From Longimicrobiales bacterium (GTDB taxonomy: Bacteria; Gemmatimonadota; Gemmatimonadetes; Longimicrobiales; Gaopeijiaceae), in the NCBI GenBank assembly GCA_965238005.1, contig OZ250165.1:800001-864000 (forward strand): a stretch of DNA of 64,000 bases, in the 5' to 3' direction. Position 1 is the stretch's first letter. Every line of letters begins with the position of its first letter. The position numbers were made by a program, and so were the translations under genes. The notes beneath the pieces are model-generated. The model searched no databases, was not told where the DNA came from, and saw only the letters and a program-made list of their open reading frames with translations. This document shows positions 9,810 to 25,046 of this stretch, one piece after another.

Positions 9810-10231
9810 ATATCTTCGGGTATTGTCCGGAGACTGGCACGCCCGGGCCAAGATCCTGCGTCGATATGGGGGCCGAACACCGGCCTTTGCCCTTGAGGGT
9901 CTGCCGCAGCGGAGCTCGAAACAGCCCTACGCCAGAGAGGCAACACGATTCTCATCCTGACCGAGCCAGCCAGGGAAAGCGCCTACCTCCGGCGACCATC
10001 TGGGGTACTCGGTGCGGAAGGGCAAGATTCCGAACGCCGAGAGGCCCGGCACACCCACTATTGCTTTGAGAGAACTTGCGCCGTGCAGATCGTGAAGTCC
10101 ATCGGCGAGAAGGGGCATGATGATGGCGAGCACGAAACGACGCCAGCCAAACTATAGCACTGGGCGAATGGGGCCGGGACCGGGTACAACCCAGGGCGGG
10201 CCTGACCAGATCGAGTGGGCGTGAGAACGGT
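9810..10231 (+). pseudogene. decayed copy of the excisionase and integrase 5' end found intact at 46578-48127
   Basis: Frameshifted peptides KILRRYGGRTPAFALE, AAELETAL, GKIPNAERPGTP, MMASTKR..GEWGRDRV and QIEW.ENG match the intact genes. Confidence 0.8.
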
Positions 10232-10234
10232 TCA

Positions 10235-10672
10235 ATGGGTAGACTCAGCCCGGTGATTTTTTTGCAGCAGTCGCAGAAGTTCTTGGAGGCATCCGAGCGG
10301 GAGTTCAACAATGCCGGATCTTCGATCCCGATCCCCGGCTACTTTCTGGCTAGTCGTGCACTGGAGCTTGCCCTCAAGAGCTTCCTTCTCCTTCACGTGA
10401 ATCGCACCGAGCACCAGCTACGAGAGATCGGGCATGACCTAGATCGCGGGCTGGACGCGGCCTGTGAACTAGGGCTGGGTGACCTGGTGGACATCGAGGA
10501 CCGGGACCGGGCGGTGATTTCCGGCCTGAACCGGTATTATGTCAGCAAGGATCTGGAGTACGTGAAGACGGGCTACAAGAGTTATCCGGACCCACAGGTC
10601 ATGCTCACCACGGTTCGCTGCCTCCTCGATGGGATTACACCGGCAGTTTGCAGGTGGCTCCCGCACGACTAA
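10235..10672 (+). CDS. HEPN-like helical protein (145 aa)
   Basis: YFLASRALELALKSFL and IGHDL motifs typical of HEPN-fold families; no canonical Rx4-6H. Confidence 0.6.
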   Translation: MGRLSPVIFLQQSQKFLEASEREFNNAGSSIPIPGYFLASRALELALKSFLLLHVNRTEHQLREIGHDLDRGLDAACELGLGDLVDIEDRDRAVISGLNRYYVSKDLEYVKTGYKSYPDPQVMLTTVRCLLDGITPAVCRWLPHD

Positions 10673-10693
10673 GCAGGACCTCTCGCCGTCGCA

Positions 10694-11449
10694 TCAACTG
10701 TGCTCCCGTAATTCGCTGCTCCAGATGTCGAGGTCCATGGCCAACGCCGTGGCGAGAGGCTGGAGCTTGCGGATCAGTGCCATGAAGAAACCGACGAGCG
10801 CCGTGTCGGCGTCGTAGAAGATCAAGTCTCTCTCGGTATGGTCGACTTCGAATGCGCCGTGGGACATGGCGAGGCCAAGATCGAGACGGTGCTTGCCGGT
10901 CAGCCCCGACAGCGCATCACGGAACGAATCGCCAAACGGCTCCGCCCAGCCGGAGGTCAGGGCAAGGATCCCGCCCAGGATCTCCTGCTTTCTCGGGTCC
11001 TTTCCCGCGTACTTACCTACGTTTGTCCAGATAGAACCTGACGTTCGATGCAGGGCGCGCACGGATGCGACCTTCTCGCCCGTCTGTTTAAGCGTCTCCT
11101 TAGAGACGTCCTGTTTCGCGTCGAAGACAGCGTAGACGCTTTCGGCCGGAACGAAGCACGACGTCCCTGCCTGGAAGAGAAATGGGGAGTACTGCGCGTC
11201 GTGGATGATGACGTCGATCTGACCGGAGATCCCATTCCGGTGGTCGAGCACGAAGCCGGTGTTGACGGAGTATCGGCGCGGGAGGTAAGCGGCCAACATT
11301 TCGCGCCAGCGAAGCTCTGCCGCCGCGCCCTTCTCGCCCTCATGGGGCATGACACGCCGGTTGGCAGACAGCGCGGACAGCATCTCTTCCTGCTTCGCGA
11401 GCATGAAATCGTGGATCGTTGGGCGTGGATCCAGCTCTTCAATCGTCAT
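10694..11449 (-). CDS. nucC: NucC-family cyclic-oligoadenylate-activated endonuclease (251 aa)
   Basis: YLPRRY, QIDVIIHDAQYSP, VPAESVYAVFDAKQ, KVASVRALHRTS, ILGGIL; GGAG RBS before ATG 11449. Confidence 0.9.
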   Translation of the reverse strand: MTIEELDPRPTIHDFMLAKQEEMLSALSANRRVMPHEGEKGAAAELRWREMLAAYLPRRYSVNTGFVLDHRNGISGQIDVIIHDAQYSPFLFQAGTSCFVPAESVYAVFDAKQDVSKETLKQTGEKVASVRALHRTSGSIWTNVGKYAGKDPRKQEILGGILALTSGWAEPFGDSFRDALSGLTGKHRLDLGLAMSHGAFEVDHTERDLIFYDADTALVGFFMALIRKLQPLATALAMDLDIWSSELREHS

Positions 11450-12340
11450 CACTCTTCTCCACCGGTGGGCTTGCCACCGACCCAACCTCACAGATGCGCG
11501 CGTGGTCGCGGTCATGGCCTGACCCGCTGGACTACGACGGGAACATCCAGTCGCGCAGGTTCGTCGGCATGGTGTCGCTGTTGGCCCGGTGCCGCGCGAG
11601 GATGGTGCCGACCTGGCGCGTGACGCGTATTCCCAACGGCACTCTCGCTTTCGTGACCTAATTTGGCATTTCGTTCTCGTAATTGTCAAAGCCGGAAGCC
11701 TAGCTACTTCGCCATTTTTCCCCTTCTGAGGAGGACGAGGCCTGAAGGATGGGCAAGGTAGTCGGCTTCGCCACCCGCACGGGGACGGTGGCGATATTGC
11801 TCGTCGCTCTGCTCCGGGAGGCATATCCGCGCCAGTAGTCCCAAGATCGCCGTGCTTGCTCGGCCTAGGCGTCTTGGCCGATCACGAGCAAAGGCCATCG
11901 CTGGTTCGTGCAGTTCTGTAGCAGCTGAGGATCCCGTTGGCGGACCAGATCCAGATCCGCCGCAGCCGACCGAACGATTTCGAGCCGACGGGAGGATCCT
12001 CCAAGTTGAGGATTGGCTGCGTGCCAAGGGGGGCCCTCCCGTCTATGGCCGCGTGCTGCGGCCAGCCGCGAGATCGTGCTAGTGGAGTGGGCCACCGTTC
12101 ACGGCGATGTCCGGTCCCTCAGCGAGTTGCTGATCTGAAAGCCGGGCTGCGGACGTTTCGCGGGGTCGTCGCTTGCCCGGAGGCCGCGAGATAGCCGACC
12201 ACCACCTGGTGCTTCATCCGCTCCGGCGGGATCGTCCACTCCCGTGCCGTGGGCTTGCCAAAGAAGAGAACGCGCCACCTTCATACGCAATGACAGTGTG
12301 TCCTTCGCCGCTCGACGGGCTTCCTCGTCTCCTCGACGAC

Positions 12341-12840
12341 TGTCAATGGCCACGGAAAACTGCACACTTCTGGCCATTGAAAAGTGCACACTTTGGGGGA
12401 GCCCGCGCGGAGGGAGCGGAGCGACCGGAGCGGGGGCTCCCGATGGAGTCGGGACACCCGTCATGACGCTGCTCCCCCGATCTCCGCGTGCTCTGCGGAG
12501 ATGGCCCGGGAGGCGGTCGGGTGGATGGCCTTGGAGAGTTCCATGTGGCGTCGCATACCGGTAGCTGTTACCCCGGATGTTGACGATGTGGCAGCGGTGG
12601 AGCACCCGGTCGAGCAGCGCGGCGGCCATGACCTCGTCGTGCAGGGTGTCTCCCCACTGCTCGAAGCCCTTGTTGGAGGTGAGCACGGTCGAAGCGTGCT
12701 CGTAGCGCCGGTTGACGAGCTGGAAGAACAGGATGGCGCCGCTCCTGGTGACCGGGAGGTAGCCGATCTCGTCGACGACCAGGAGTGCGGGGTGGGTGAG
12801 GGTCTTCAGCCGATGGTTGAGCCGACCGGCCGCCTCGGCA
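12341..12840 (-). mobile_element. istB: IS21-family right end with frameshifted istB 3' fragment
   Basis: End TGTCAATGGCCA with repeated aa(c/g)tgcacactt; LVVDEIGYLP, LTSNKGF, LDRVLHRC, GNSYR; truncated near 12840. Confidence 0.85.
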
Positions 12841-12860
12841 GAGTGCGGATAATGTGATTC

Positions 12861-12981
12861 ACGGCAAGTAATCGTCTAAGTTCAACTGGGACTGCACGAT
12901 CTGCCGCACTTGCCGCTTTGAGGACATCTGATTCCGCCGCACTGAAATAGCGGGGAAACGGTATCAAAAGGCGGGAGTCCC
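12861..12981 (+). repeat. ~120-bp non-coding att-like element, inverted copy at 57055-57175
   Basis: acggcaagtaatcgtctaagttcaa...gactgcacgatctgccgcacttgccg...ggcggga(g/a)tccc shared between the copies. Confidence 0.85.
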
Positions 12982-13037
12982 GGCTCCGCGCTGTTCAGTG
13001 TGGGCAATCCGCCAGCGGGTGTCAGCATGAGGTCCGG

Positions 13038-13153
13038 TGCCTATCCGCTCCGAGCGAAGCCGTCCGGGTTGGAGCGGAATCGGTGGACGGCTTGGCCTGG
13101 AACAGGTGGACGGCTTGGCTCGGAATGAGTGGACGACTTCGTCGGAATAGGCA
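13038..13153 (-). mobile_element. isolated IS21-type end (possible miniature element)
   Basis: Reverse strand begins TGCCTATTCCG; three ggaaNNNgtggacg repeats at ~22-bp spacing; tgcctatccg at 13038. Confidence 0.65.
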
Positions 13154-13187
13154 AACTTGGCATAACCCGTCGCGGTAAACCCCGCCT

Positions 13188-13223
13188 GTTTCGATCCGCG
13201 CCCCCCGCGCGGGGCGGGGCGAC
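13188..13223 (-). CRISPR. solitary type I-C-like CRISPR repeat (no array)
   Basis: Reverse strand GTCGCCCCGCCCCGCGCGGGGGGCGCGGATCGAAAC; one copy, no cas genes in the window. Confidence 0.6.
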
Positions 13224-13361
13224 GGCATCAAGGGGTTGAACGTCACGCTTATCAGGCTCGGCACAGATGATATGATTCACGGTAGAGTCGAGGACTGGCG
13301 CGCCGACGTTAGGGTCCGGTGGCTATTCCGTCGCTTTCGCTCCGGGCCTCAGACCGGCTCC

Positions 13362-13662
13362 TGGCGTGACCCCCTGAAACGAGACCAGCGCGAATGTTAG
13401 GATCTGGCACTGGTCGCAAGATCAGGAGGAGGTCACAAATGAGCAGGAGAAGGCACACGCCGGAGCAGATCATCACGGCACTGAGGGAGGCCGAGGTAGG
13501 TCTGGCGAACGGCAAGACGGTGGCAATGGTGAGCCGTGAGCTCGGGATCAGCGAGCAAACGTACTACCGGTGGCGGAAGGAGTTTGGGGGGATGAAGGTG
13601 GATCAGGCCCGGCGGCTGAAGGAACTGGAGCGAGAGAACGGGCACCTGAAGCGGGCGGTGGC
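13362..13662 (+). mobile_element. IS3-family left end with truncated orfA (ATG 13439)
   Basis: tggcgtgaccccctgaaacgagacca end; MSRRRHTPEQII...RRLKELERENGHLKRAVA then abrupt junction with the kinase gene. Confidence 0.85.
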
Positions 13663-15008
13663 GAGTGCCGGGCCGCGTTCGAGAAGAGGTTGTTGAGCAC
13701 CTGGACGATGCGCTCGCGGTCGGCCATCACCCGCGGGAGGTCCGGCGGGAGGTCGATGACGACGGCGTGCCGTCCGCCCCCGCTCAGAAAGGTGGTCCGG
13801 GCCCGATCCACGAGCGCGGCGACGCTGGAGGGCTCGGGCGCGCTGGAGGGCTCGGGCGCGATGGTGAGCGTGCCCGCCTCGATGCTCCCGGCGTCGAGGA
13901 GGTTCGCGATGAGGCCCCTCATGTGGTCCGCCTGCCCGTCGATGATGCGGAAGAACTGGAGCAGCTCGGCCTGGGGCGGGACGGGGGAGGCACCGAGCAC
14001 GGTCGCCGTCGAGCCCTTGATCGAGGTGAGCGGCGCGCGGAGCTCGTGGCTCACCATCCCGAGAAACTCCGCCCGCTGCCGCTCGAGGTCGTCGAGCGGC
14101 GCCAGGTCCTGAACGGTGGTGACGACCGACACGAGTTCCCCCTCCTCCGAGCGGATCGGGGTGACGTTCAGGAGCGTCCGGACGCTCCGCCCGTCGGGCA
14201 CCGATAGGACGACCTCCTCGGCGCGCATCGTCGTGGCGCCCTCGAGGTGCCACGCGAGGGGAAACTCCTCGAGGGAGTGCTCCCGCCCGTCGGCGTGCCT
14301 GCACGTCAACACCTCGAAAAGGTGCTCGGTCGGGCGGCCCGGGGTGCGGAGCCCCTCGGCGATCCGCCGCGCCTCGCGGTTGAACAGGACCGGGCGACCG
14401 GTGGCAGCGTCGAAGACCCCGACCCCGACCGGCGAGGTCTCGACCAGAGCCTCGAGGTCGGCCCGCGCCCGCTCGACGTCGCGGTGCGTCCTCGCGTTCG
14501 CGATCGCCGTCCCCGCCTGCGAGGCGAAGAGCAGCAGGATCTCCTCGTCCTCGGCGGTGAACGCCTCGCCGTTCTCCTTGTCGCCCAGGAAAAAGTTCCC
14601 CAGATGCTCGCGCCGGTGGTGCATCGGGGTCCCCTGCAGCGTCTTCGAGCTCGAAGGGTTCGAGAGGCCGAGCGAGCGAAGGTAGCCGGGGAGGTCCGCC
14701 ACCCGGAGCGGCGCCGGAAGGTCCCTCAGGTGCTCGAAGAGCCAAGGCCCGTCGGGCCAGTCCATCAGATTCCGGCGCTCGTCCGGCGTCATGCCGGAGG
14801 TGACGACGTCCTGCACCCGTCCCCGGTCGTCGACGGTCGTGATCATGCTCTGACGGGCGCTCGTGAGCGCGCGGGCGCTGTCGACGACCTCCTCAAGCAC
14901 CGTGGCCAGGTCGAGGCTCTGGCTGATGCGCAGGATCGCCGCGCTCAGCCGCGAGATGCGGTTGTCGGAAGGCCTGCTCCCGTGCCCCGCAAGCTCTCCA
15001 TCGCTCAA
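13663..15008 (-). pseudogene. GAF-PAS sensor histidine kinase, 3'-truncated in the HATPase domain
   Basis: H-box FLGMVSHELRAPLTSIKG, N-box QVLNNLFSNAARHS then IS3 junction; G-boxes missing; 18-bp tandem duplication at 13823-13858. Confidence 0.85.
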
Positions 15009-15157
15009 TGTTCCACTCCCGCTGCGGGGTGAGGCGGAGCCGGCCGGGCTCCGCAGCGGAGTGGAGGATAGCGCGTTTCCGGGGGACAGTCACGAACGGG
15101 CCATGAGACTCGCCCGTAAGTCACAATAAGCTTACTAACAATCGGTTAGCTTCCCGT

Positions 15158-15191
15158 TTTACTCGCGATAACTGTAGTTATCAGGAGTAAA
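15158..15191. other. 34-bp lox-like recombination site A (13-8-13)
   Basis: TTTACTCGCGATA-ACTGTAGT-TATCAGGAGTAAA; arms 11/13 inverted match. Confidence 0.75.
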
Positions 15192-15236
15192 CGCCGCAAG
15201 AAATTGTGACCTGCGGGCCGTGCGGTCTCCCGGGGC

Positions 15237-16200
15237 TCATCGGCGTTTCTGGAGGCGTGCGAGCTGGGCGGCGCCGTTGCGCTTGGCGAGGAGCCGCCCG
15301 CCGTATAGCTGCACCATCGAGGCGCTCTTCCAGCGTCCGGCCTGCATGATGGCGGGGATCCCGATCCCCGATGCGACCATGTCCTGAGCGGCCCCCACCC
15401 GGGGGCTGTGCCCGGAGATCCGGCGCACCATCTCGGCGGGGAGCCCGGCGCGTTCGGCCATCGCCCGGTAGATGCGCGGCACCTGGCTCGCATCGAGGCT
15501 CTCGCCCACGGTGCCGTCTTTGTGGAGCGAACGGAAGAGCGGCCCGGCGGCGATCCCGCTCGCGCACAGCCACTCCCGCACCAGCTTCACGGTGTCGAAG
15601 TGCAGGTACAGCATCGCACCGCCGCCCTCCGGATCGCTCTTCGCGCGGCGTACGAGGAGCGAGGCCGATCCTCCCCTATCTATCGTCACATCAGCTACTT
15701 GCAGCGCGACCAGCTCCGAGCGGCGGAGCATGGCGTCGTAGGCGACGGCGAGCATCGCACGGTTCCGCACGTCGATGGTCCGGTCGCCGCCGGCCGACGT
15801 CAGGCGTCGGCGGAGTTTCCAGGTCAGACCCTGCACCTGCGTCTGGCGGGCCCCCCTCCGCCGGCGCATGCGCTGTAGGGCCCGCTGCACCGCGGCGCGC
15901 TCAAGCGGGCTCCGTTCCCCGGCCGCCTTGTGCATGGCGGCGATGCTGAATACGTAGCGGCGCACGGTGGCCGGGGCGCGGACGCCCGCCATCGCATCGA
16001 CGTACGCCGCCACCGTGGCCGCGCGCGCGGGGAAGCGGAGAGAGTCCCCGCTCCGCGCACCATGCCGCGAACCCTTCCAGGTCCGCTCGGAGGGCCCGGA
16101 CGGTGTTCCCGCTGAGGGCGCCGGCGGCGTCCTGCAGGCACGCAGCGAGCCGTTCTCCGATTTGTGACCGCCTTGTGGTGGGACCTGTAGGGCCGGACAC
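15237..16200 (-). CDS. Cre-like tyrosine recombinase, split by one frameshift near 16030
   Basis: N-terminal NTVRALRADL..FAAWC in ORF 15901-16200; catalytic LRRSEL, AKSD, GHSPRVG, AGRW, VQLYG in ORF 15237-16013; one extra base in a C run. Confidence 0.85.
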
Positions 16201-16258
16201 GACTACTGGGCCGAAATCGGCATAAGTGACTCCTCTACAACGATATACGTCAAAACGT

Positions 16259-16292
16259 TTTACTCCCGATAACTACAGTTATCGGGAGCAAA
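16259..16292. other. 34-bp lox-like recombination site B, inverted relative to site A
   Basis: TTTACTCCCGATA-ACTACAGT-TATCGGGAGCAAA; arms 12/13; spacer is the reverse complement of the site A spacer. Confidence 0.75.
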
Positions 16293-16431
16293 AACGGCGT
16301 CGCGGCACCAAGTGGCAAGGGACAGGCCTTCACGGCGAGAGCGAGCAAGAGCGCCATGCGGTCGTCCGGGCGCACGGGAAACCGGCCCCGCGTTGCGGAG
16401 GTCGCCAACACGACAAGGGAGACGAACAGCA

Positions 16432-19400
16432 ATGGGATTCGAACCGACACGGCAGACGGGACATTCGCGATCGGAGCGGGCTGCACGCATGGCCCCGCCG
16501 CTATCGTGGCGCTTCCTCTATCCGCGCGCGGGGGCGGCCCGTCTCCATCGTGGACTTCTGGCGTGCGCTTCGCGGGGCGGCATGTCGGGGCTGCGCCATC
16601 TCGGGCCATCTCTCGCCGGACCGGCCCTGATGGGTCTGATCCTGCTTGCGTTCTCCACCCTCGGCGCAGCGCCGGCCCAGGCGCAGACGGTGGCCACCGA
16701 CGCGACGCTGAGCGAGATCGTCGTCAATAAGAAGGAAGGCAATGACCGCGGCGATGAGATTGTGCTGGAGCCGGCCTTTTCGAGCGACCGGACCTCCTAC
16801 AGCTTCGTGGTGGGACACGAATCCTCTTCGTTCCTGACGGTCCGCACGACCCACCCCCGCGCGACGGTGAGGATCTTCGAGGGTCGGCTGTCGCATCTGG
16901 AGACGCCGCCGCATCTGGAGGGGGAGGTGAGGCATTACGGCGAGGTGGTGGTGCGGTCTCTCGGGGGTGGGCGGTGGTCGACCAATCTCAATCCCTTCGA
17001 AGGCCGCTATTGGATCGACGTGACGGTGACTTCGGCGGACGAAGAACACCAAGTGAACTACAGGTTGGACTATTTGGCCAGGGGCCGGCCGCCGAGTCTG
17101 CTTTGGGCCTTGATCGCGCCGCACGGCTCGAGGGGGACTCTCGACCGCGTGACGCTGAAATACGACAAGATCCTGAGACCGGACGGGCCCGATCCGGACA
17201 ACCCCTTGGCACCGCCGGCGAGCGCCTTTTCGGTGGAGGTGGAAGGCGAACGTGTGCCGGTGACGAGGACGCAGATCAACGCCGAGTATCTGCAGCTGAG
17301 GCTGGCGCGGGAGCTGTCCCCCCAGGAGCAGCAGGTGACGGTGAGCTATGCCCGTCCGGCCACGAACCCGGTGCAGACCAACATCGGAGGGCTCGCGTTC
17401 GACTTCACCGACTACCCGGTGGACGTCAGCCGGGCACCCACGACCAACAATTCCGAGCTGTCGGTCGCGGACGCCGAGGTGACCGAGGGCGAAGGGACGA
17501 TGGACTTCGTGGTGACGCTCGCGCCGGCGCAGCGGCCGCCGGCGTGGGTGGACTACGCGACGGCGGACGGCACGGCCAGGGCGGGCGAGGACTACAGGGC
17601 GACGAGCGGACGGGTGAAGTTCCGGAAGAGGGAGACGACCAAGACCGTCTCCGTGCCGATCATCAACGACGCGGTGGAGGAGGACGGGGAGACGTTCACG
17701 CTCGTCCTGAGCGACCCCGAAGGCGCGCTGATCGCCGACGGGGAGGCGACCGGCACGATCGTCGACGACGGCGACGAAGGGGTGCAGCCGCCGCGGCCGC
17801 CGCAGAACACCGGCACGGAGCTGTTCTCCGAAACGATGACCGTGGGGTACGACTTCAACAACACTTGGGCCGGATATGACGACGGATCAGGTGGTAACTC
17901 TCAGATCGGTATGCTGCCCGAGACCGGCTTCTCCTTCGGCGGCACCGGCTACACGGTGGAGCAGGTGACGAACAGTGATTCCGGGGAGCTGCGGCTGAAG
18001 CTGAACGGCCTGCTGACGCAGGAGGACGCCGCGCCGCTGGACCTGTATATCGGCAACACGCTGTTCGGGTTGGCCGGGGCGGACCGCTACTTTGGCAACC
18101 GCAACTTTCGCGCCTGGAATGACTCCGGTCTGGTCTTGCGCTCCGGCTCGACCATTCTGGTGCGGATTGTGGATCGGAGGCCGGCGATGACCGGGACGTT
18201 CGAGAACGTCCCGCGGAACCACAACAGCCCGTTCACCTTCGAGGTGCATTTCAGCGAGGAGGTCGTGGTGAGCGCGGAGACGCTGCGCGACCATGCCTTC
18301 GCGGTGACCAACGGCGAGGTGACGGGGGCGCGGCAGCTCAATCCGCCGAGCACGATGGCGTGGGAGATCACGGTCGCTTCGTTCTCGGAGGAGGCGGTGA
18401 CGTTGGTGCTGCCGGAGACGACGGACTGCGCGGCGGCGGGCGCGATCTGCACCGAAGACGGGCGGATGCTCTCGGCGGATATCTCGGCGGTGGTGGAGGG
18501 GCCCGGGGCGACGCCCGAGCCGCTGACGGCGACCTTCGGCGACGTGCCATCCGAGCACACGGGACAGGCGTTCACGTTCGGGCTGGCGTTCAGCGAGGAG
18601 GTCGAGATCAGCTATGAGACGCTGCGCGACGACGCGTTCGAGGTCACGGGCGGGAGCGTCACGACCGCGAGCCGCACCGCGCCGCCGTCGAACCAGGAGT
18701 GGGCGATCACGGTCGAGCCGGCTTCGAGCAGCGACACGGTGGCCATCACGCTGCCGGAGACGACCGACTGCGGCGCGGCCGGCGCCATCTGCACGGGCGG
18801 GGACGACCCGAGGCCGCTGAGCAACAGCCCGTCGCACACCGTGGCGGCGGCGGCGGCGGTGCCGGAGCCGCTGACGGCGACCTTCGGCGACGACATGCCG
18901 GCCTCGCACACGGGAGAGACGTTCACGTTCGGGCTGAGCTTCAGCGAGGAACTCGCCTCCGACTTCAGCTACAAGACGCTGCGCGACGACGCGTTCAGCG
19001 TGACCGGCGGAAGCGTGAAGAATGCGAGCCGGCGGACGCAGGGCAGCAACCTCGCGTGGAACATCACGGTCGAGCCGGCTTCCACGAGCGCCACGGTGAC
19101 CATCACGCTGCCGGAGACGACCGACTGCGCCGCGACCGGGGCGATCTGCACAGAGGACGGCCGAGCGCTGTCGCACTCGCTGTCGGCGACCGTCAACGCG
19201 GCCTCCGCGAGCGCGAGCGCCGCGGCGAACGGGGACGGGGACGCGGAGGACGACGCGCTGGCGCTGGTGGCCGGCGTGACCCCGGACGAGGCCGCCCAAG
19301 CGTTGTTCGGCGAGCGGAGGCTGAGCGAGGCCCGGCTGGACGCTCTCGACCTTCTGGGCAACGGAAACGGTCGCTACGACCTCGGCGACCTGCTCTCCTG

Positions 19401-19983
19401 GATCGAGCGCTGCCGACAGGGTGAAGCGAGTTGCGGAAGCGTGCCCACGGATCCCGGTCCCGTCTCGGGCGCCGCCCTGCTCGCCGCCGGCGCGGTCGGA
19501 CGGCGGGGGAGCTCCAGGCGCCCCAAACGGCGCGATTCCGGGTGCCGCGGACGCTCACCGGGGGGACGCGGCAGGCGCCGCCGGGCGGGCATGGCAGGAT
19601 ACGTGCTCGCCATGCTGCTCGCCGCCACGACCTGGTCGTGTGCCGGCGATGCGGTCGGGCCGGCCGCCGTCGAGCAGGATCCGGGCTTCCTGACCGTGGA
19701 AGTAACCGGGCTCGTCGCCAATCGCGACATCGGCGTGCTGCTGGAGCTGGAAGGCCCCGGCATCGAAACCGTGCGGGCTCCCGGTCTCGAGTTGTACCAA
19801 TCCACGGCGGCCGGGCGGCATCAGATCGTCGTGGCGGGCTCGCTCATGGCGGGTCCCCTCGTGCAGTTCGAGGTGCCGGACCGCGGCCAGCTTCCTCTGT
19901 ACCGGGTCCGCGTCCAGCAGGTCACGGGAGAGGGCTACGGGCTGAGGGACACAGGGAACTACCGGGCCGTGATCACGCACTGA
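16432..19983 (+). CDS. large surface/adhesin-like protein (beta-sandwich, Calx-beta, three Cys-pair repeats); start uncertain (16432 or 16630)
   Basis: Signal-like AQA-Q; LSVADAEVTEG..VDYATADGTARAGEDY Calx-beta; 3x LPETTDCxAxGAICT repeats; DLLGNGNGRYD Ca-binding-like loop. Confidence 0.8.
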   Translation: MGFEPTRQTGHSRSERAARMAPPLSWRFLYPRAGAARLHRGLLACASRGGMSGLRHLGPSLAGPALMGLILLAFSTLGAAPAQAQTVATDATLSEIVVNKKEGNDRGDEIVLEPAFSSDRTSYSFVVGHESSSFLTVRTTHPRATVRIFEGRLSHLETPPHLEGEVRHYGEVVVRSLGGGRWSTNLNPFEGRYWIDVTVTSADEEHQVNYRLDYLARGRPPSLLWALIAPHGSRGTLDRVTLKYDKILRPDGPDPDNPLAPPASAFSVEVEGERVPVTRTQINAEYLQLRLARELSPQEQQVTVSYARPATNPVQTNIGGLAFDFTDYPVDVSRAPTTNNSELSVADAEVTEGEGTMDFVVTLAPAQRPPAWVDYATADGTARAGEDYRATSGRVKFRKRETTKTVSVPIINDAVEEDGETFTLVLSDPEGALIADGEATGTIVDDGDEGVQPPRPPQNTGTELFSETMTVGYDFNNTWAGYDDGSGGNSQIGMLPETGFSFGGTGYTVEQVTNSDSGELRLKLNGLLTQEDAAPLDLYIGNTLFGLAGADRYFGNRNFRAWNDSGLVLRSGSTILVRIVDRRPAMTGTFENVPRNHNSPFTFEVHFSEEVVVSAETLRDHAFAVTNGEVTGARQLNPPSTMAWEITVASFSEEAVTLVLPETTDCAAAGAICTEDGRMLSADISAVVEGPGATPEPLTATFGDVPSEHTGQAFTFGLAFSEEVEISYETLRDDAFEVTGGSVTTASRTAPPSNQEWAITVEPASSSDTVAITLPETTDCGAAGAICTGGDDPRPLSNSPSHTVAAAAAVPEPLTATFGDDMPASHTGETFTFGLSFSEELASDFSYKTLRDDAFSVTGGSVKNASRRTQGSNLAWNITVEPASTSATVTITLPETTDCAATGAICTEDGRALSHSLSATVNAASASASAAANGDGDAEDDALALVAGVTPDEAAQALFGERRLSEARLDALDLLGNGNGRYDLGDLLSWIERCRQGEASCGSVPTDPGPVSGAALLAAGAVGRRGSSRRPKRRDSGCRGRSPGGRGRRRRAGMAGYVLAMLLAATTWSCAGDAVGPAAVEQDPGFLTVEVTGLVANRDIGVLLELEGPGIETVRAPGLELYQSTAAGRHQIVVAGSLMAGPLVQFEVPDRGQLPLYRVRVQQVTGEGYGLRDTGNYRAVITH

Positions 19984-20275: not shown

Positions 20276-20535
20276 GGCTTCTCTCCCCGCGCCGGAACCC
20301 CACCCACCAACACAGCGCCGTCCTCCCCGGAGCAACCGGCCCGGCCCGCTGCCCGTCGCCCGCACTCCATGCCCTCGACAGGACCTCCGCCGAGGGCTCC
20401 GGGGGTGTGCGCGACCGCGCCGGCGGAGCCACCGGACGGGCCGTTCGTACGTCTGAATATCTCTACGCAGAGCCAGCACTTGAGACACTTCCTACGGGTT
20501 GATGTCCTCGCAAACGGGTCTTCGTCGTTGCGGCC

Positions 20536-21159
20536 ATGCGGACGCTGGAGCAGCAGTTCGCTTCGCGGTTGAGCGCGTTCCTGCGGCGCACGGGCCTGAG
20601 GCCGACGACGTTCGGCAGGATGGCGCTGGGCGACCCGAACCTGGTGCGCCAGATCGATGGCGGCCGCTCGCTGTCGCTCAAGACCGCGGACCGGGTTCTG
20701 GCCTTCATGGCCGAGTACGACGGGGACTCGGGCGGCGCGCGGGACCCGCCCCGCCGCCCTCGACACCGGACGGCCGCGTCACGGACGAGGAGAACGTGGA
20801 GAAGCAGAGCGACGACCGAACAACCGATCGAACGGAGTACCAAGGCGCCGACCCGCTTCCTGCGGCTGCCTGAGGTGCAGGCCCGCACGGGCCAGTCGCG
20901 GAGCACGATCTATGTGCGGGTGGAGCAGGGGCGCTTCCCCCGGCCGGTCTCGCTGGGTGCGCGCGCCGTGGGCTGGATCGAGGCTGAGGTGGACGAGTGG
21001 ATCCGCGAGCGGATCGAGGCGAGCCGGAGTGTCGCGGACGGTGCCGTCCACTGCCCCCCAAGAGGGAGGACCCGGCGGTCATTCTCATCACCCGTCTCCA
21101 GACCGACGGGGCGCCGGTCGCGGAGGAGGAGGGATGATCGGCCATCTCCCGGGCCGTGA
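20536..21159 (+). CDS. alpA: AlpA-family regulator with extra N-terminal helical domain (copy 1)
   Basis: FLRLPEVQARTGQSRSTIY..GRFPRPVSLGARAVGWIEAEVDEWI. Confidence 0.85.
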   Translation: MRTLEQQFASRLSAFLRRTGLRPTTFGRMALGDPNLVRQIDGGRSLSLKTADRVLAFMAEYDGDSGGARDPPRRPRHRTAASRTRRTWRSRATTEQPIERSTKAPTRFLRLPEVQARTGQSRSTIYVRVEQGRFPRPVSLGARAVGWIEAEVDEWIRERIEASRSVADGAVHCPPRGRTRRSFSSPVSRPTGRRSRRRRDDRPSPGP

Positions 21160-21468
21160 CCAGGCGCTCGGGTCCTTCGGCTGGACGGGACGCGACGGAC
21201 GCACCGTGGATCGGCACTCGGAATCGTGCACCTCCCGGCGTGAACAGTTCCACGCCGGTGACTTCCCCTTCCCACCCCCATCTGGATCGACCTTCCGCCG
21301 CACCCGTGAAGGGAGGCTCCCCGGAGCCCCGATGGGGGCGTTGCCCAAGCCATTGGCGGCGCGATCCAGCGGCTTCGGCGCCGTCCGGAACGACCCCGAA
21401 CGTCCCGGGACTGTAGGCAGTTTGCTAAAGGTTGACGCCCTTGCGCAGAGGTCTTCAGCGTTCGGGGC

Positions 21469-21987
21469 ATGATGACGCTGGAGCAGCAGTTCAGATCGCG
21501 GGTGAGGGCGTTCCTCGGACGCTCGAGCCTGAGCCCGACGAGGTTCGGCAGGATGGCGTTGGGCGACCCGAGTCTGGTGCGCCGGATCGAGCGCGGTCGT
21601 TCGCTGACGCTGAGAACGGCGGACCGGATTCTGGCGTTCGTGTCCGAGTACGACGGGAAGACGGGCGGCACGCGCGATCCGCCCCGTCGTCCTCGATACC
21701 GGAAGCCCTCGCCGCGAGCGAGGAAGACGAACAGGAGCAGAGCGACGACCGAGCAGCCCATGGAACAGAGAACGAACGCGCCGACCCGGATTCTCCGCCT
21801 GTCGGAGGTGCAGGCCCGCACGGGTCTGTCGCGGACCACGATCTACCGGTGGCGGGTTGGGGGACGCTTCCCCCGGGCGATTGTGCTGGGAAGGCGGACC
21901 GTGGGCTGGATCGAGTCGGAGGTGGAGGAGTGGATCCGCGAGCAGATCGCGGAGAGCCGGGGCGGCGCCGAGAGTGCCGCCCACTGA
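21469..21987 (+). CDS. alpA: AlpA-family regulator (copy 2), first gene of the vir operon
   Basis: ILRLSEVQARTGLSRTTIY..GRFPRAIVLGRRTVGWIESEVEEWI; paralogue of 20536. Confidence 0.88.
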   Translation: MMTLEQQFRSRVRAFLGRSSLSPTRFGRMALGDPSLVRRIERGRSLTLRTADRILAFVSEYDGKTGGTRDPPRRPRYRKPSPRARKTNRSRATTEQPMEQRTNAPTRILRLSEVQARTGLSRTTIYRWRVGGRFPRAIVLGRRTVGWIESEVEEWIREQIAESRGGAESAAH

Positions 21988-22009
21988 CCCCGAGATGGAG
22001 GACAAGAGA

Positions 22010-22297
22010 ATGAGAACGTTGTTGACGACGGTGCGGACGGCTGCGTGGGCCGCGCTGTGGATGCTCGTGCCCGCCCGGCTGTTGGCCCAGGGCACGAGTC
22101 CGTGGGTGGAAGCGGTGAACGAGCTTCAGGCGCAGTTCACGGGTCCGATCGCGAGGGGGCTGTCGCTGATCGCGATCGTGGTGGGCGGGCTGATGTTCGC
22201 GTTCGGCGAGGGCGGGAGCAAGCGCACGCTGGCCGGGATCATCTTCGGGCTCGGGATGGCGATGGGCGCGGCCAACTTCCTGGCCTGGCTGTTCTGA
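22010..22297 (+). CDS. virB2: VirB2/TrbC pilin
   Basis: Signal peptide, PW..FTGPIARGLSLIAIVVGGLMFAFGE, two hydrophobic helices. Confidence 0.88.
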   Translation: MRTLLTTVRTAAWAALWMLVPARLLAQGTSPWVEAVNELQAQFTGPIARGLSLIAIVVGGLMFAFGEGGSKRTLAGIIFGLGMAMGAANFLAWLF

Positions 22298-22602
22298 TGC
22301 GTGGCCTCAGGCGCTGGGCGGGCTACGCCGCGCTCAATCGTCCGCTGACGGTGCTGGGCGTGGAGCGGCGGCTGTTCCTCTTGGGCGCGACGCTCGCGCT
22401 CGCCGTGTGGAACGCGACGGCGTCGCTGGTCGCGGGCGGCCTGGTGTTCGCCGTCTGCTACGGTGCGGGCTGGCTCGCGGGCCGGAAGGATCCGGCCATG
22501 CTCGCGGTGCTCCGCGCGGCCGCCCGCCACCCGGCGCGGTTCGATCCGGGCAAGTGGGCGGACGAGCCCTGGCACTTGAAGATCCGGGCGGTCGGCAGGT
22601 GA
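22297..22602 (+). CDS. virB3: VirB3
   Basis: ALNRPLTVLGVERRLF, KDP motif; TGATG coupling. Confidence 0.85.
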   Translation: MRGLRRWAGYAALNRPLTVLGVERRLFLLGATLALAVWNATASLVAGGLVFAVCYGAGWLAGRKDPAMLAVLRAAARHPARFDPGKWADEPWHLKIRAVGR

Positions 22603-25046
22603 GGGTCGCGGAGGAGCTTCGGGCCTACGAGGCGGCGGGCTCGCTGGCCGAGGAGCTGCCCTACTGGGGCTGGCTCGACGACGGCCGCACCTGCCTGACC
22701 CGTTCGGGCGAGCTGATCGCGGCGGGCCGGCTGCGGCCCGCCGCGGTGGACGGGCGCACGCCGGAGCAGATCGACCGCGTGCTGGGCCTCTGGCAACGCC
22801 TGCTGTCGGGGCTCGGCCCGGGTACGCGCTTCCACTTCTATCTGCTCCGCCGCCCGGAGCCCGCCGTTCGCCCGGAGGAGCACGGCGGCTCGGACATCGC
22901 GTCGGTCTCGAAGCGGGAGCGCTGCTTATTTCTAGCCCGGCGGGTGCAGCGGCTCGATGCCTACGTCGTCTGGTCGCACGATCCCGGTCTCCGTCCGGTG
23001 GCCGATGGTTCCCGGTCGGGACCCGTCGCCCGGCTCACCGGGTTGTGGAAGCGCCGCCGCGGCAAGAGCGCGCCGACGTACCTCGCCTCGGAGATCGAGG
23101 CCGCGGCGGGCCGGTTCCGGGCGATGATCGAGGCGGGCCGCTCACTCGTCGCCGAACACACACCGGTCGAGATGCTGGGAGCCGCGGAAGCATCCCGGCT
23201 GCTTTCCGAACTGACGAACAGGCCGGGCACGGCGTGGGACGGGGCGACGGGCAGCGGCATGAACTGGCGGCTCGCGGTGTCGGAACTGGAAGCGGAGCGT
23301 TCGCATCTGACGCTCGACGGCGAGCCGGTGATCCTGTACTCGCTCCTGTCGCCGCCGGGCCAGGCGCACGCGAACCTGCTGCGCGACCTGTACTGTCTCG
23401 ATGCCACGCTCACGGTCTCCCTCGAGTGGCGACCGTGGACGGTCGAGGCGGCGCGGCGCCGGATCCGGGGCGCGCAGCGCCACTACTTCTCGCGCCGCTA
23501 CTCGATGATGGCGCACGTGCAGGAGACCGAGGGCACGGCGGCCGCGATGGTCGATTCGGCCGCAGCGGTCGAGTCGGACCGGCTGGGCGGCGCGCTCGTG
23601 GAACTCGAGGCGGACGGCGTGGGCTACGGCGAGGCCGCGCTGACGGTGGCGCTCCACGGCGACTTGGGCGAGATCGAGCGCCTGGACGGCGACGTGCGGC
23701 GGCTCTTCGCGGCGCACGACGCGAAGGCGGTCCGGGAGGGCTACGGCCAGCTGCCCGTCTGGTTCGCGCGGCTCCCGGCCCAGCCGCCGGGGCGGCAGGT
23801 GCGAACGGTGTTCGTCTCGGCCGGGCTCGCCGCGTGCCTCGCGCCGGTGTTCGGGCCGCCCGGGGGCTCGGCCCGGAGCCGGCACCTCGGCCGCGAGGCG
23901 CTCGCGGTCCTCGAGACCCCGTGGCGCACCGCGTATCACTACGATCTGTTCGCGGGCGATGTGGGCCACACGCTGATCCTCGGCGCGACGGGCTCCGGCA
24001 AGAGTTTCGCCTTGAATTTTCTTCTGGTCGAGGCGCTCAAGTACGGCCCCCGCGTGCTGATCCTGGACCTGGGCGGCTCCTACCGCTGGCTGACCCGCTT
24101 CGTCGGAGGCTCCTACCTCGAGCTCACGCCCGGCGACTCGGAGTCCGGGCTCAGGCTTCAGCCGTTCGCGCTGCCCTCAGGCACGCGCACCTTCCAGTTC
24201 CTGACCGGCTGGGTGCTCCGGCTGCTGAAGCTGGGCGGCTACGAGGCGGGCGGCGCGGACACGAGCGAGCTCCGCGCCCGCATCGAGGACCTCTACGCGC
24301 TCGGGCCGGAGCGGCGCACGCTCGGCGTGCTCACCGGCTCGCTCCCCTCGGCGATGTGGCCGGCGCTCAGCCGCTGGACCGGAGATGGAGCCTGGGGCCG
24401 GTACTTCGACAACCCGCCGGCAGGTGCGGCGGACCTCGAGTTTGGCGACTGGCAGGTGATCGATCTGGCGGGCGCGGCCGAGCATGCGGATCTATGCGAG
24501 GGCGCGCTGTCGTACCTGCTCGAACGGATGCGCCTCGAGATCGAGGATGCGTCGGAAGCGGCCCGGCTCAAGCTGATGGTCGTGGACGAGGCGTGGCGCT
24601 ACCTGGCCGACCCTGCGGTGCTCGCCTACCTGGCCGAGGCGGCGAAGACGTGGCGCAAGAAGAACGCGGCGCTCGTGCTCGCGACCCAGTCCGCCGTGGA
24701 CGTGACGGGAACGGCGGGCGCCTCCGCGCTCCTCGAGTCGATCCCGACGAAGCTGTTCCTGGCGAACCCCGAGTTGCCGGACGAGGCCGGGGCGCTCTTC
24801 CGGCTGAACGAGTCGGAGCTGGCCCGGGTCCGCGAACTCGCGCCGAAGCGCGAACTCTATCTCCGCCGGCCGGACGAGGCGGCCGTGCTCCGCCTCGAAG
24901 TCGACGCCGCGAGCTACTGGCTCTACACCTCCTCGCCGCTCGACGCCGAGAAGCGCGCCGAGGCCGTCGCGAAACACGGCCTGGTACGCGCGCTCGAGGT
25001 GCTGGCGGGAGGAGCCCACCCCACCCCCAAGCCCGAGAGGAAGTGA
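22599..25046 (+). CDS. virB4: VirB4 ATPase
   Basis: GHTLILGATGSGKS, VVDEAW, TWRKKNAALVLATQS; GTGA overlap. Confidence 0.93.
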   Translation: MRVAEELRAYEAAGSLAEELPYWGWLDDGRTCLTRSGELIAAGRLRPAAVDGRTPEQIDRVLGLWQRLLSGLGPGTRFHFYLLRRPEPAVRPEEHGGSDIASVSKRERCLFLARRVQRLDAYVVWSHDPGLRPVADGSRSGPVARLTGLWKRRRGKSAPTYLASEIEAAAGRFRAMIEAGRSLVAEHTPVEMLGAAEASRLLSELTNRPGTAWDGATGSGMNWRLAVSELEAERSHLTLDGEPVILYSLLSPPGQAHANLLRDLYCLDATLTVSLEWRPWTVEAARRRIRGAQRHYFSRRYSMMAHVQETEGTAAAMVDSAAAVESDRLGGALVELEADGVGYGEAALTVALHGDLGEIERLDGDVRRLFAAHDAKAVREGYGQLPVWFARLPAQPPGRQVRTVFVSAGLAACLAPVFGPPGGSARSRHLGREALAVLETPWRTAYHYDLFAGDVGHTLILGATGSGKSFALNFLLVEALKYGPRVLILDLGGSYRWLTRFVGGSYLELTPGDSESGLRLQPFALPSGTRTFQFLTGWVLRLLKLGGYEAGGADTSELRARIEDLYALGPERRTLGVLTGSLPSAMWPALSRWTGDGAWGRYFDNPPAGAADLEFGDWQVIDLAGAAEHADLCEGALSYLLERMRLEIEDASEAARLKLMVVDEAWRYLADPAVLAYLAEAAKTWRKKNAALVLATQSAVDVTGTAGASALLESIPTKLFLANPELPDEAGALFRLNESELARVRELAPKRELYLRRPDEAAVLRLEVDAASYWLYTSSPLDAEKRAEAVAKHGLVRALEVLAGGAHPTPKPERK

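Follow-up and report, generated by a model that had tools for sequence, protein, structure and literature searches.

In a 64,000-nt stretch of the 4.84-Mb genome of a Longimicrobiales bacterium (hereafter the window, its own genome being denoted G000; positions are window coordinates unless stated otherwise), the gene of a Cre-type tyrosine recombinase is enclosed by two lox-like sites of 34 bp. Site L (also termed site D) lies at the 3' end of the gene and site R (also termed site U) at its 5' end, and together they delimit a segment of 1.1 kb from which the genes on both sides, encoding a sensor kinase and a giant surface protein, point away. A preliminary description of this DNA had reported two sites of 13-8-13 geometry with reverse-complement spacers around the recombinase gene. 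Both were present at the positions given there, and direct reading of the sequence demonstrated that their spacers are exact reverse complements. In a repeat search of the window the pair was recovered as a 35-nt inverted repeat with 91% complementarity, and each site by itself as a near-perfect 17-2-17 palindrome. The orientation information of the window copy is carried only by the central GT/AC and a few arm positions; in distant relatives, the central 4-6 bases of the site are asymmetric. Matches to the 17-nt core with up to two mismatches were found in the window at site L and site R only, and in none of 100 shuffled sequences. When the whole of G000 was scanned with a degenerate site pattern, five sites were obtained, all adjoining the three recombinase copies of this genome, together with one unrelated match containing 1 mismatch. 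No solitary target site was found in that scan, and the reversed pattern, used as a control on the whole genome, gave no match. Since the core is confined to two places in the window, is absent from all 100 shuffles and recurs in the genome only beside recombinase copies, a chance origin of the site pair is excluded. The palindromes were also considered as intrinsic terminators and rejected, as a T run precedes the stem and an A run follows it on both strands; the lone terminator-like match, on the minus strand at 16310-16295, is within the chance expectation of 0.7.

Relationship of the enzyme to Cre

The sole Pfam match of the recombinase is Phage_integrase (1.1e-15). For comparison with Cre, the intact paralogue located at 881 kb in the same genome served as the query of a phmmer search against all solved structures (PDB). 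Chains of Cre were matched with E-values of 1.3e-31 to 2.5e-30 over residues 14-298, followed by XerD at 6.7e-7. The catalytic residues of Cre were all aligned, namely R (in LLRRSEL), K (GKTD), HxxR (GHSPRVG), W (GRWKS), and Y (QRYG). The same motifs are carried by the window protein, and most of the catalytic positions were invariant in an alignment of seven paralogues. The earlier claims of a Cre-like enzyme and of an intact R-K-HxxR-W-Y set therefore hold and, as judged from these alignments, the enzyme is a full-length homologue of Cre that retains its catalytic residues. A Xer recombinase or integron integrase was ruled out by the NCBIfam models XerC, XerD, and XerA, for which scores of 38.1, 26.6, and 23.5 bits were far below the cut-offs of 220, 335, and 330. 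A serine DNA invertase of the Hin/Gin type was rejected as well, Phage_integrase being the only Pfam match and no serine recombinase (resolvase) domain being matched. GTG is the likely start codon because the upstream ATG of the relatives is out of frame in the window copy. As in Cre-type systems, a target of 34 bp with 13-bp inverted arms and an 8-bp spacer lies close to the gene. The site arms end in a GATA motif, and such a motif beside the spacer is described for active Cre-type sites in a report on these enzymes (PMC10250229). The features of the locus are collected in Table 1.

Table 1. Features at and around the recombinase segment, in window coordinates
Feature	Position	Strand	Description
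Site L (site D)	15158-15191		Lox-like, recombinase 3' end; plus strand TTTACTCGCGATA-ACTGTAGT-TATCAGGAGTAAA (13-nt arm, 8-bp spacer ACTGTAGT, 13-nt arm)
Site R (site U)	16259-16292		Lox-like, recombinase 5' end; plus strand TTTACTCCCGATA-ACTACAGT-TATCGGGAGCAAA (spacer ACTACAGT)
Cre-type tyrosine recombinase gene	15237-16200	minus	Two frames, 15237-16013 and 15901-16200; likely start GTG 16200
Extra A (coding-strand T)	16033	minus-strand gene	Causes the frameshift; absent in the genome-start paralogue
Recombinase 5' leader	16201-16258	minus	Within the segment; conserved TAT.TC.TTG, GGAG, TTATG (alignment of 14 loci)
Candidate outward promoter	15171-15199	minus	-35-like TTGCGG (15194-15199), 17 nt, -10-like TACAGT (15171-15176) in spacer; would point at the kinase
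GTCACAAT motif	15203-15210	minus	Inside the segment; mirrored outside by TTGTGAC (15120-15127); inverted repeat, conserved in alignments
Kinase-gene leader	15009-15157	minus	Conserved; GTGAG/GTGAC repeats; stem of CCTCCACTC with GGGAGTGGA ribosome-binding region
Truncated sensor kinase	13548-15008	minus	GAF, PAS, HisKA (Pfam); lacks full ATPase, receiver and DNA-binding part; downstream of recombinase, co-oriented
Giant surface protein	16312-19983	plus	Calx-beta, SWM repeat (Pfam); divergent from recombinase; start uncertain

Distribution of paired sites among relatives

In a search of 61 genomes (G000 and 60 relatives), the recombinase gene was found in three, namely G000, G001 of the same genus, and G005. 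G000 holds three copies, located in the window, at 881 kb, and at the genome start. The copy at 881.2-882.4 kb lies outside the window and has 83% DNA identity. Its sites are GCTCCCGATAGTT-GT-AACTATCGGGAGC and the AC counterpart, with the spacer GTTGTAAC, and their palindrome has been preserved by compensating changes (AACT to AGTT). G001 has six copies, one of them partial; the five full-length ones are all flanked by paired sites with reverse-complement cores, including one with 57% identity that uses AACTGGAATT and AATTCCAGTT. In G005, two sites with unlike spacers (of the ACTACAAT type and the ACTGGAAT type) surround a 364-aa frame at 10104-11973 of locus L031; the frame has no Pfam match and adjoins a recombinase fragment, and L031 may be a rearranged or hybrid module.

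A wider survey was conducted by a profile scan of one genome per species, which yielded 226 loci encoding relatives. The best 80 of these, with 60-84% identity and from approximately 48 assemblies (a hand count of accession prefixes), were analyzed. The titles of their records name Longimicrobiales, Candidatus Palauibacter, Vicinamibacterales, Terriglobia, Latescibacterota, and Alpha- and Gammaproteobacteria; Candidatus Palauibacter is sponge-associated. Sites were accepted by a filter demanding the 13-8-13 geometry, no more than three arm mismatches, and an arm ending in GAT[AT]. Homologues of the window enzyme do carry such flanking sites, since both were found at 52 of the 80 loci. Only the upstream site was found at nine, only the downstream site at five, and neither at 14. 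The count of 52 is a lower bound, as the second site of at least one locus, L107, fell outside the search window. That locus carries two upstream sites with the same spacer 47 nt apart (2692-2772), and its matching downstream site lies 820 nt past the recombinase stop codon. The two sites of a pair are 1.1-1.4 kb apart. In a proteobacterial and acidobacterial group (L090, L091, L097, L100, and others), the segment is approximately 300 nt longer and contains a lone conserved half-site, GTTATCGCGAG, which follows the recombinase stop codon and precedes the downstream full site by about 170-200 nt.

It can be observed that the spacers of the 52 pairs, among which 23 distinct sequences occur, are related in one sense only. 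Exact reverse complements account for 38 pairs and identical, direct spacers for none, while the remaining 14 pairs have 1-2 mismatches to the reverse complement as against 3-7 to the direct form. This co-variation of asymmetric spacers as reverse complements is the chief reason to conclude that the sites of a pair must recombine with one another, with inversion as the outcome. Furthermore, because sites are paired at 52 of the 80 loci, their spacers co-vary in this manner, and their arms share the GATA motif of active Cre-type sites, they are taken to be the targets of the enzyme itself. From the sequences compared, the possession of paired inverted sites is a family trait across many lineages and several phyla. 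As is characteristic of an inverton, inverted recombination sites bound the segment both at the window locus and in the relatives.

Metagenomes were scanned with two patterns. A 30-nt pattern combining the outer arm with the adhesin flank had no match. The 18-nt core CGATAACTGTAGTTATCG matched 30 loci with unrelated arms, of which only L136 has a weak recombinase match (28%). This core is shared by an unrelated repeated element with other arms (AACTGTAA... / ...ACAAATCG), observed at L114, L115, L119, L120, and about ten further metagenome loci, and many of its metagenome contigs end there.

Natural inversion products and orientation

The preliminary description proposed that the 1.1-kb segment flips. 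The sequences of other copies contain natural products of such an inversion. The third copy of G000, located at the very beginning of its single contig (C1:1 to C1:4839169), has an intact reading frame. Its bases 1-1011 are collinear with window positions 15285-16297 (99.3% DNA identity), and its bases 974-2494 correspond in reversed orientation to 13652-15191 (98.6%). The junction site consists of the inner arm of site R of the window (CTCCCG type), AC, and the reverse complement of the outer arm of site L (CTCGCG type), and this hybrid site is followed by the inverted kinase leader. By this comparison, the junction is the exact left-hand product to be expected of inversion of the segment with crossover within the spacer. 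Three substitutions and one single-base indel distinguish the recombinase part of the start copy from that of the window copy, and their kinase parts are distinguished by an 18-bp in-frame indel. The two are therefore separate copies, and a single locus has not been assembled twice. The contig begins inside this recombinase copy and its end does not continue the gene; the assembly is therefore open at the repeated module, and the far site and adhesin flank of the start copy are missing.

An assembly artefact at the contig start is ruled out by locus L036, in which the same flipped module, 99.8% identical to the start copy, lies in the interior of a 903-kb contig from a different assembly. The order there is kinase (minus), hybrid site, recombinase (plus), hybrid site, and an adhesin 92-97% identical to that of the window. 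The 5' end of its recombinase gene is split by a 1.4-kb insertion encoding a Mutator-family transposase, which would freeze the flipped state. A second case is provided by L053 and L057 from two further assemblies, of the same site type, between which the segment 2933-4076 is collinear (92.2%) while the two flanks have exchanged places and are reversed (96.6% and 88.7%); the breakpoints fall within the 34-bp sites. These alignments reveal inversion on at least two independent occasions, with site-level precision each time. Both orientations, as expected of an inverton, are thus represented among paralogues as well as among genomes (the start copy, L036, and L053 compared with L057), and the relatives, which the preliminary description had singled out for a check on orientation, do not share a single one.

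Orientation was called at the 80 loci by tblastn with the N-termini of the kinase-regulator and the adhesin. The kinase-regulator was located downstream on the same strand, the standard arrangement, at 42 loci, upstream on the opposite strand (flipped) at two, L036 and L053, and had no match at 36. The window copy has the standard orientation. An adhesin-like gene was found upstream at 49 loci and downstream at three (L036, L053, and L102), with no match at 28.

Sequencing runs and the frameshift

Evidence from sequencing runs was obtained from the Logan contigs of four public runs (X1-X4) from three studies. The preliminary description had offered two explanations of the frameshift in the recombinase gene, a sequencing error and a lock on the switching phase. 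Contigs without the extra A at 16033 were obtained from X1 (2.6/2.6), X2 (72.9/72.9), X3 (357.9/366.5), and X4 (25.4/28.1), and a contig of X1 covering 15184-16288 is identical to the window copy apart from this base. Because the extra A is missing from the contigs of all four runs, an error of assembly or a change peculiar to the strain is a more likely cause of the frameshift than a programmed lock.

The contigs also bear on orientation. A 94-nt contig of X1 begins with 20 letters that are the reverse complement of 15192-15211 and continues with 16259-16332, at a depth of 3.1, similar to that of its neighbors; it represents a flipped right-hand junction. In X3 a single joint on opposite strands connects 15206 to 16263, at a depth of 7.2 compared with approximately 350 for the main contigs, and this one minor contig weakly suggests a mixture of orientations within one population. 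A loose end at 16291 was observed in X1, X2, and X3, where a site with a CC spacer (GATAATTCCAGTTATCGCGAGC) is joined to the adhesin flank of the window from 16291. Another module type therefore shares this adhesin flank in the sampled communities.

Promoter and leader sequences

The distribution of a -35-like pentamer, TTGAC/TTGCC, was determined at the 52 paired loci. In the terminal 60 nt of the segment on the side of the recombinase 3' end, it is present on the outward strand at 44 loci and on the inward strand at one. The corresponding counts at the recombinase 5' end are one outward and three inward, and those of the outer flanks are three and five. The alignment shows that in several lineages the pentamer, 17 nt, and a TAnnnT-like box all precede the site. 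In the window lineage and the proteobacterial group, the pentamer abuts the inner arm, and the -10-like box consequently falls in the spacer. Since the spacer reads the same at both ends when read outward from inside, such a promoter would survive inversion and merely be re-aimed. The pattern suggests that a single promoter reads outward from the recombinase 3' end, toward the regulator in one orientation and the adhesin in the other. Similarly, the gene order and the outward -35-like motif are consistent with the read-through toward kinase or adhesin that the preliminary description envisaged.

The leader of the kinase gene is conserved across lineages right up to the site, and that on the adhesin side is not conserved in the alignment. 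Within the former (15009-15100, minus strand), CCTCCACTC can pair with GGGAGTGGA just before a TTG start codon and around a variable hairpin, a pairing that would be predicted to hide the ribosome-binding site. The fold of the kinase leader (-42 kcal/mol, z-score -0.85) was no better than that of shuffled sequences, and an Rfam search of 14800-16500 returned nothing near the gathering score. Outside site L, GTGAG-N6-GTGAC repeats are located at 15100-15135. GTCAC motifs inside the segment and the GTGAG-N6-GTGAC repeats of the kinase leader occur at 25 of 27 loci with a kinase-regulator gene against 5 of 25 without one, a comparison among related loci that does not amount to a statistical test. 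Speculatively, these motifs could be operators of the OmpR-type domain and form a feedback loop.

Flanking genes and surroundings

In its intact form, the module is a unit of three genes: the recombinase, a co-oriented downstream kinase-regulator, and a divergent upstream giant protein. The kinase-regulator is a GAF-PAS-HisKA-HATPase-receiver-Trans_reg_C fusion of approximately 800 aa, and the giant protein has 845-2268 aa with Calx-beta, fn3, and cadherin domains. At distant loci, a giant SWM/fn3/Calx-beta gene is retained on the 5' side, and the kinase fusion is replaced on the 3' side by LysR or LuxR-type regulators or an LRR protein. In the window, three frames are open past site R (16226-16730). 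A good ribosome-binding site precedes an ATG at 16433 that is out of frame with the adhesin reading frame of Table 1; either the true start of the adhesin is in doubt or a further indel error is present. The truncated kinase, cut after HisKA, adjoins an IS21 IstB remnant at 12099-12875, and a 397-bp stretch at 12859-13255 is 100% identical to 794949-795345 of G000, just left of the window.

Window positions 20503-25046 contain two AlpA-type genes and a gene for a TraG/VirB4-like ATPase. The AlpA region is repeated at many places in G000 with approximately 80-88% identity, ArdC adjoins the 881-kb copy (877.9-880.4 kb of G000), and TrbL/VirB6 is found in the last 2 kb of the contig. Judged by its gene content, the surroundings of the module look like a conjugative element.

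Proposed mechanism and alternative explanations

It is probable, on the evidence described above, that the locus is a self-contained inversion switch whose invertible segment carries the gene of the Cre-type tyrosine recombinase that operates it. We are most confident of one part of this proposal, as the sites are very likely the targets of the enzyme and undergo inversion. That the inversion is a regulated switch between expression of the regulator and of the adhesin is an evenly balanced matter. According to the proposed mechanism, recombination between the opposed 8-bp spacers would invert the 1.1-kb segment without excising it. The segment would carry one outward promoter at the recombinase 3' end, with a -35-like box inside it and, in the window lineage, a -10-like box in the spacer. 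With the segment in the common orientation, read-through from the recombinase gene and this promoter would together feed the regulator gene, which is the truncated GAF-PAS kinase in the window and a kinase/OmpR-type fusion, a LysR, or a LuxR regulator in intact relatives. In the flipped orientation, the same promoter would feed the giant Calx-beta/FN3/SWM surface protein. The recombinase would keep its own promoter in both states, so that the switch would be reversible. A further extension, namely a horizontally spread family of Cre-type toggles in Gemmatimonadota, Acidobacteriota, Latescibacterota, and Proteobacteria, each with a promoter straddling the crossover that flipping would join either to a signal-transducing regulator or to a giant eukaryote-like surface protein, has about equal prospects of being right or wrong.

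A number of observations weigh against the inversion switch, the chief reservations being the orientation bias of 42 to 2 and the decay of flipped copies. Among the 44 loci with a kinase-regulator match, 42 are standard and two are flipped, and in G000 and G001 eight of nine modules have the standard orientation; with orientation so lopsided, inversion is possibly rare. All flipped modules are damaged, the kinase being truncated in the start copy, L036, and L053. The flipped-junction contig of X1 has G where the inner arm in the window has A (15183), so it may represent the far end of the genome-start copy, missing from the assembly, and not a flip of the window locus. Run contigs break at the site palindromes in any case and are uninformative at the site centers, as the palindromes are longer than the word length of the assembler and a second copy exists. 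One or both sites are missing by the filter at 28 of the 80 loci, and the 1-2 spacer mismatches in 14 of the 52 pairs would, by analogy with Cre-type systems, be expected to hinder recombination. Regarding the promoter, the weak -35-like box of the window (TTGCGG) falls outside the TTGAC/TTGCC pattern and a sigma-70 consensus scan of 14800-16700 returned no promoter. In a strict sigma-70 scan, outward promoters were found at the recombinase 3' end of only six of the 52 loci and almost nowhere else. With the strict scans mostly negative, the placement of the promoter rests on the looser count of the -35 motif.

An alternative explanation is that the sites mainly serve multimer resolution, maintenance of a conjugative element, or self-repression of the recombinase, with inversions being rare, non-regulatory by-products. 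We consider this unlikely, though it deserves some weight. Plasmid relatives (45-48% identity) carry one site approximately 72 nt upstream of the gene at three of five loci, in the manner of Cre/loxP, the context of the module includes conjugative functions (AlpA, TraG-like ATPase, ArdC, TrbL), its orientation is almost fixed, and its flipped copies have decayed. Resolution, however, calls for direct repeats or for a single site on each replicon copy, whereas an inverted second site has been kept at 52 of the 80 loci, with 23 spacer types co-varying as reverse complements and no direct pair among them. Such selection for spacer identity between the two sites argues that they recombine mutually. 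Moreover, the recurrent placement of the module between outward-pointing adhesin and regulator genes would be left unexplained.

It is less likely still, and in our judgment improbable, that the 1.1-kb unit of site, recombinase, and site is a mobile cassette that enters lox-like targets in either orientation. Many copies per genome (three in G000, five to six in G001, and six loci in one assembly) and the spread of the unit over several phyla at 60-84% identity would agree with mobility. Nevertheless, the flanks travel along with it, the kinase leader being conserved to the site and an adhesin gene standing on the other side (49 of 80 loci). In flipped copies each outer arm has remained beside its flank and the inner arms alone have changed place, which locates the crossover inside the spacer and not at the ends of an element. 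G000 offers no solitary target sites, and inverted spacers cannot yield excision. An autonomous insertion element was rejected on the same grounds, the flanks being homologous between copies and the outer arms remaining with them.

Finally, palindromic operators or RNA hairpins unrelated to recombination, with the flipped copy as an assembly artefact, are scarcely credible, for although each site is a near-perfect palindrome, the flipped copy of G000 sits at a contig start, and De Bruijn contigs break at the sites, the T and A runs exclude intrinsic terminators, flipped modules were assembled in mid-contig in L036 and again in L053, the G000 copies differ by substitutions and the 18-bp in-frame indel, and reverse-complement co-variation of an asymmetric spacer would be meaningless for a hairpin or a symmetric operator.

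Comparison with known systems

In nature, Cre-type enzymes circularise and resolve phage and plasmid DNA. If the inversion switch proposed here is real, the native inversion of a segment by the recombinase encoded within it would extend the natural roles of these enzymes and provide a tyrosine-recombinase counterpart of the Hin switch. The module family is large (226 loci, with many copies per genome), crosses phyla, and adjoins genes of giant Calx-beta/FN3/cadherin/SWM surface proteins. It may therefore control adhesin presentation in mostly uncultured bacteria, in which host or surface adhesion would then be phase-variable. Furthermore, dozens of co-evolved recombinase/site pairs with at least 23 natural spacers would become available for genome engineering, the co-varying arms and spacers marking candidate orthogonal pairs. 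In a full-text literature search, no account was found of a Cre-type recombinase gene lying between inverted copies of its own target site.

Besides Cre, the Cre-type recombinases named by Jelicic et al. 2023 include Dre, Vika, and VCre (PMC10250229). Its candidates include YR14 from a Methylobacterium oryzae plasmid, YR16 from Methylorubrum extorquens AM1, and YR9 from a Sphingomonas koreensis plasmid (Table S3). In a tblastn search against plasmids, the record of YR14 and plasmids of other M. extorquens strains matched at 45-47% identity and the record of YR9 at 37%. YR14 and YR16 are the closest relatives found in print. The target sites given for these two end in CGATA next to an 8-bp spacer (PMC10250229). 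The enzymes named as active in that article are YR1, 2, 4, 6, 8, 9, 11, and 12, with YR14 and YR16 not among them, and YR9 recombined its predicted site in Escherichia coli at 16% (PMC10250229). At the three plasmid loci with a single upstream site, no second site was found within 3-4 kb, and at the other two of the five checked, the site filter found none; nor, up to 3 kb from the S. koreensis gene, did it recover the site published for YR9. As the checked plasmid loci had at most one site, the paired inverted layout marks the subfamily of the window and not its plasmid relatives.

Cre/loxP of phage P1 is similar to the window module in full-length homology, in the catalytic residues, in a 34-bp target of 13-8-13 geometry adjoining the gene, and in a GATA-type motif. 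Unlike it, the window module has two sites with other arm sequences that enclose the gene in inverted orientation, and it is located on a chromosome or conjugative element between adhesin and regulator genes. It probably serves to invert DNA and not to circularise it or resolve dimers. In the Rci shufflon of plasmid R64, C-terminal exons are shuffled via many asymmetric sfx sites, and the rci gene is located outside the segments. It is comparable in that a tyrosine recombinase inverts DNA on a conjugative element and affects an adhesin (PMC11852207). Inversion by tyrosine recombinases also controls adhesins and LuxR-type regulators in FimB/FimE-fimS, ipuS, and hyxS of E. coli and in the invertons of Bacteroides and Clostridioides. 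In the Fim-type, ipuS-type, and Bacteroides/Clostridioides systems, however, the segments are short promoter segments, the recombinases are encoded outside them and are not of the Cre type, and the inverted repeats are short and imperfect.

Two systems have the recombinase gene within the part that inverts. In Flp/FRT of the yeast 2-micron plasmid, a tyrosine recombinase gene likewise stands between inverted copies of its own target and the intervening part inverts; that system, however, belongs to a eukaryotic plasmid, has long inverted repeats, and functions in copy-number amplification. The nearest architectural analogue is the Hin/hix H-segment of Salmonella, with which the window module shares a recombinase inside an invertible segment of approximately 1 kb, short inverted sites, and a proposed outward promoter. 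Hin, however, belongs to the serine recombinases and depends on Fis and an enhancer; the window enzyme is a Cre-type tyrosine recombinase, and both flanks of its segment carry outward-pointing genes.

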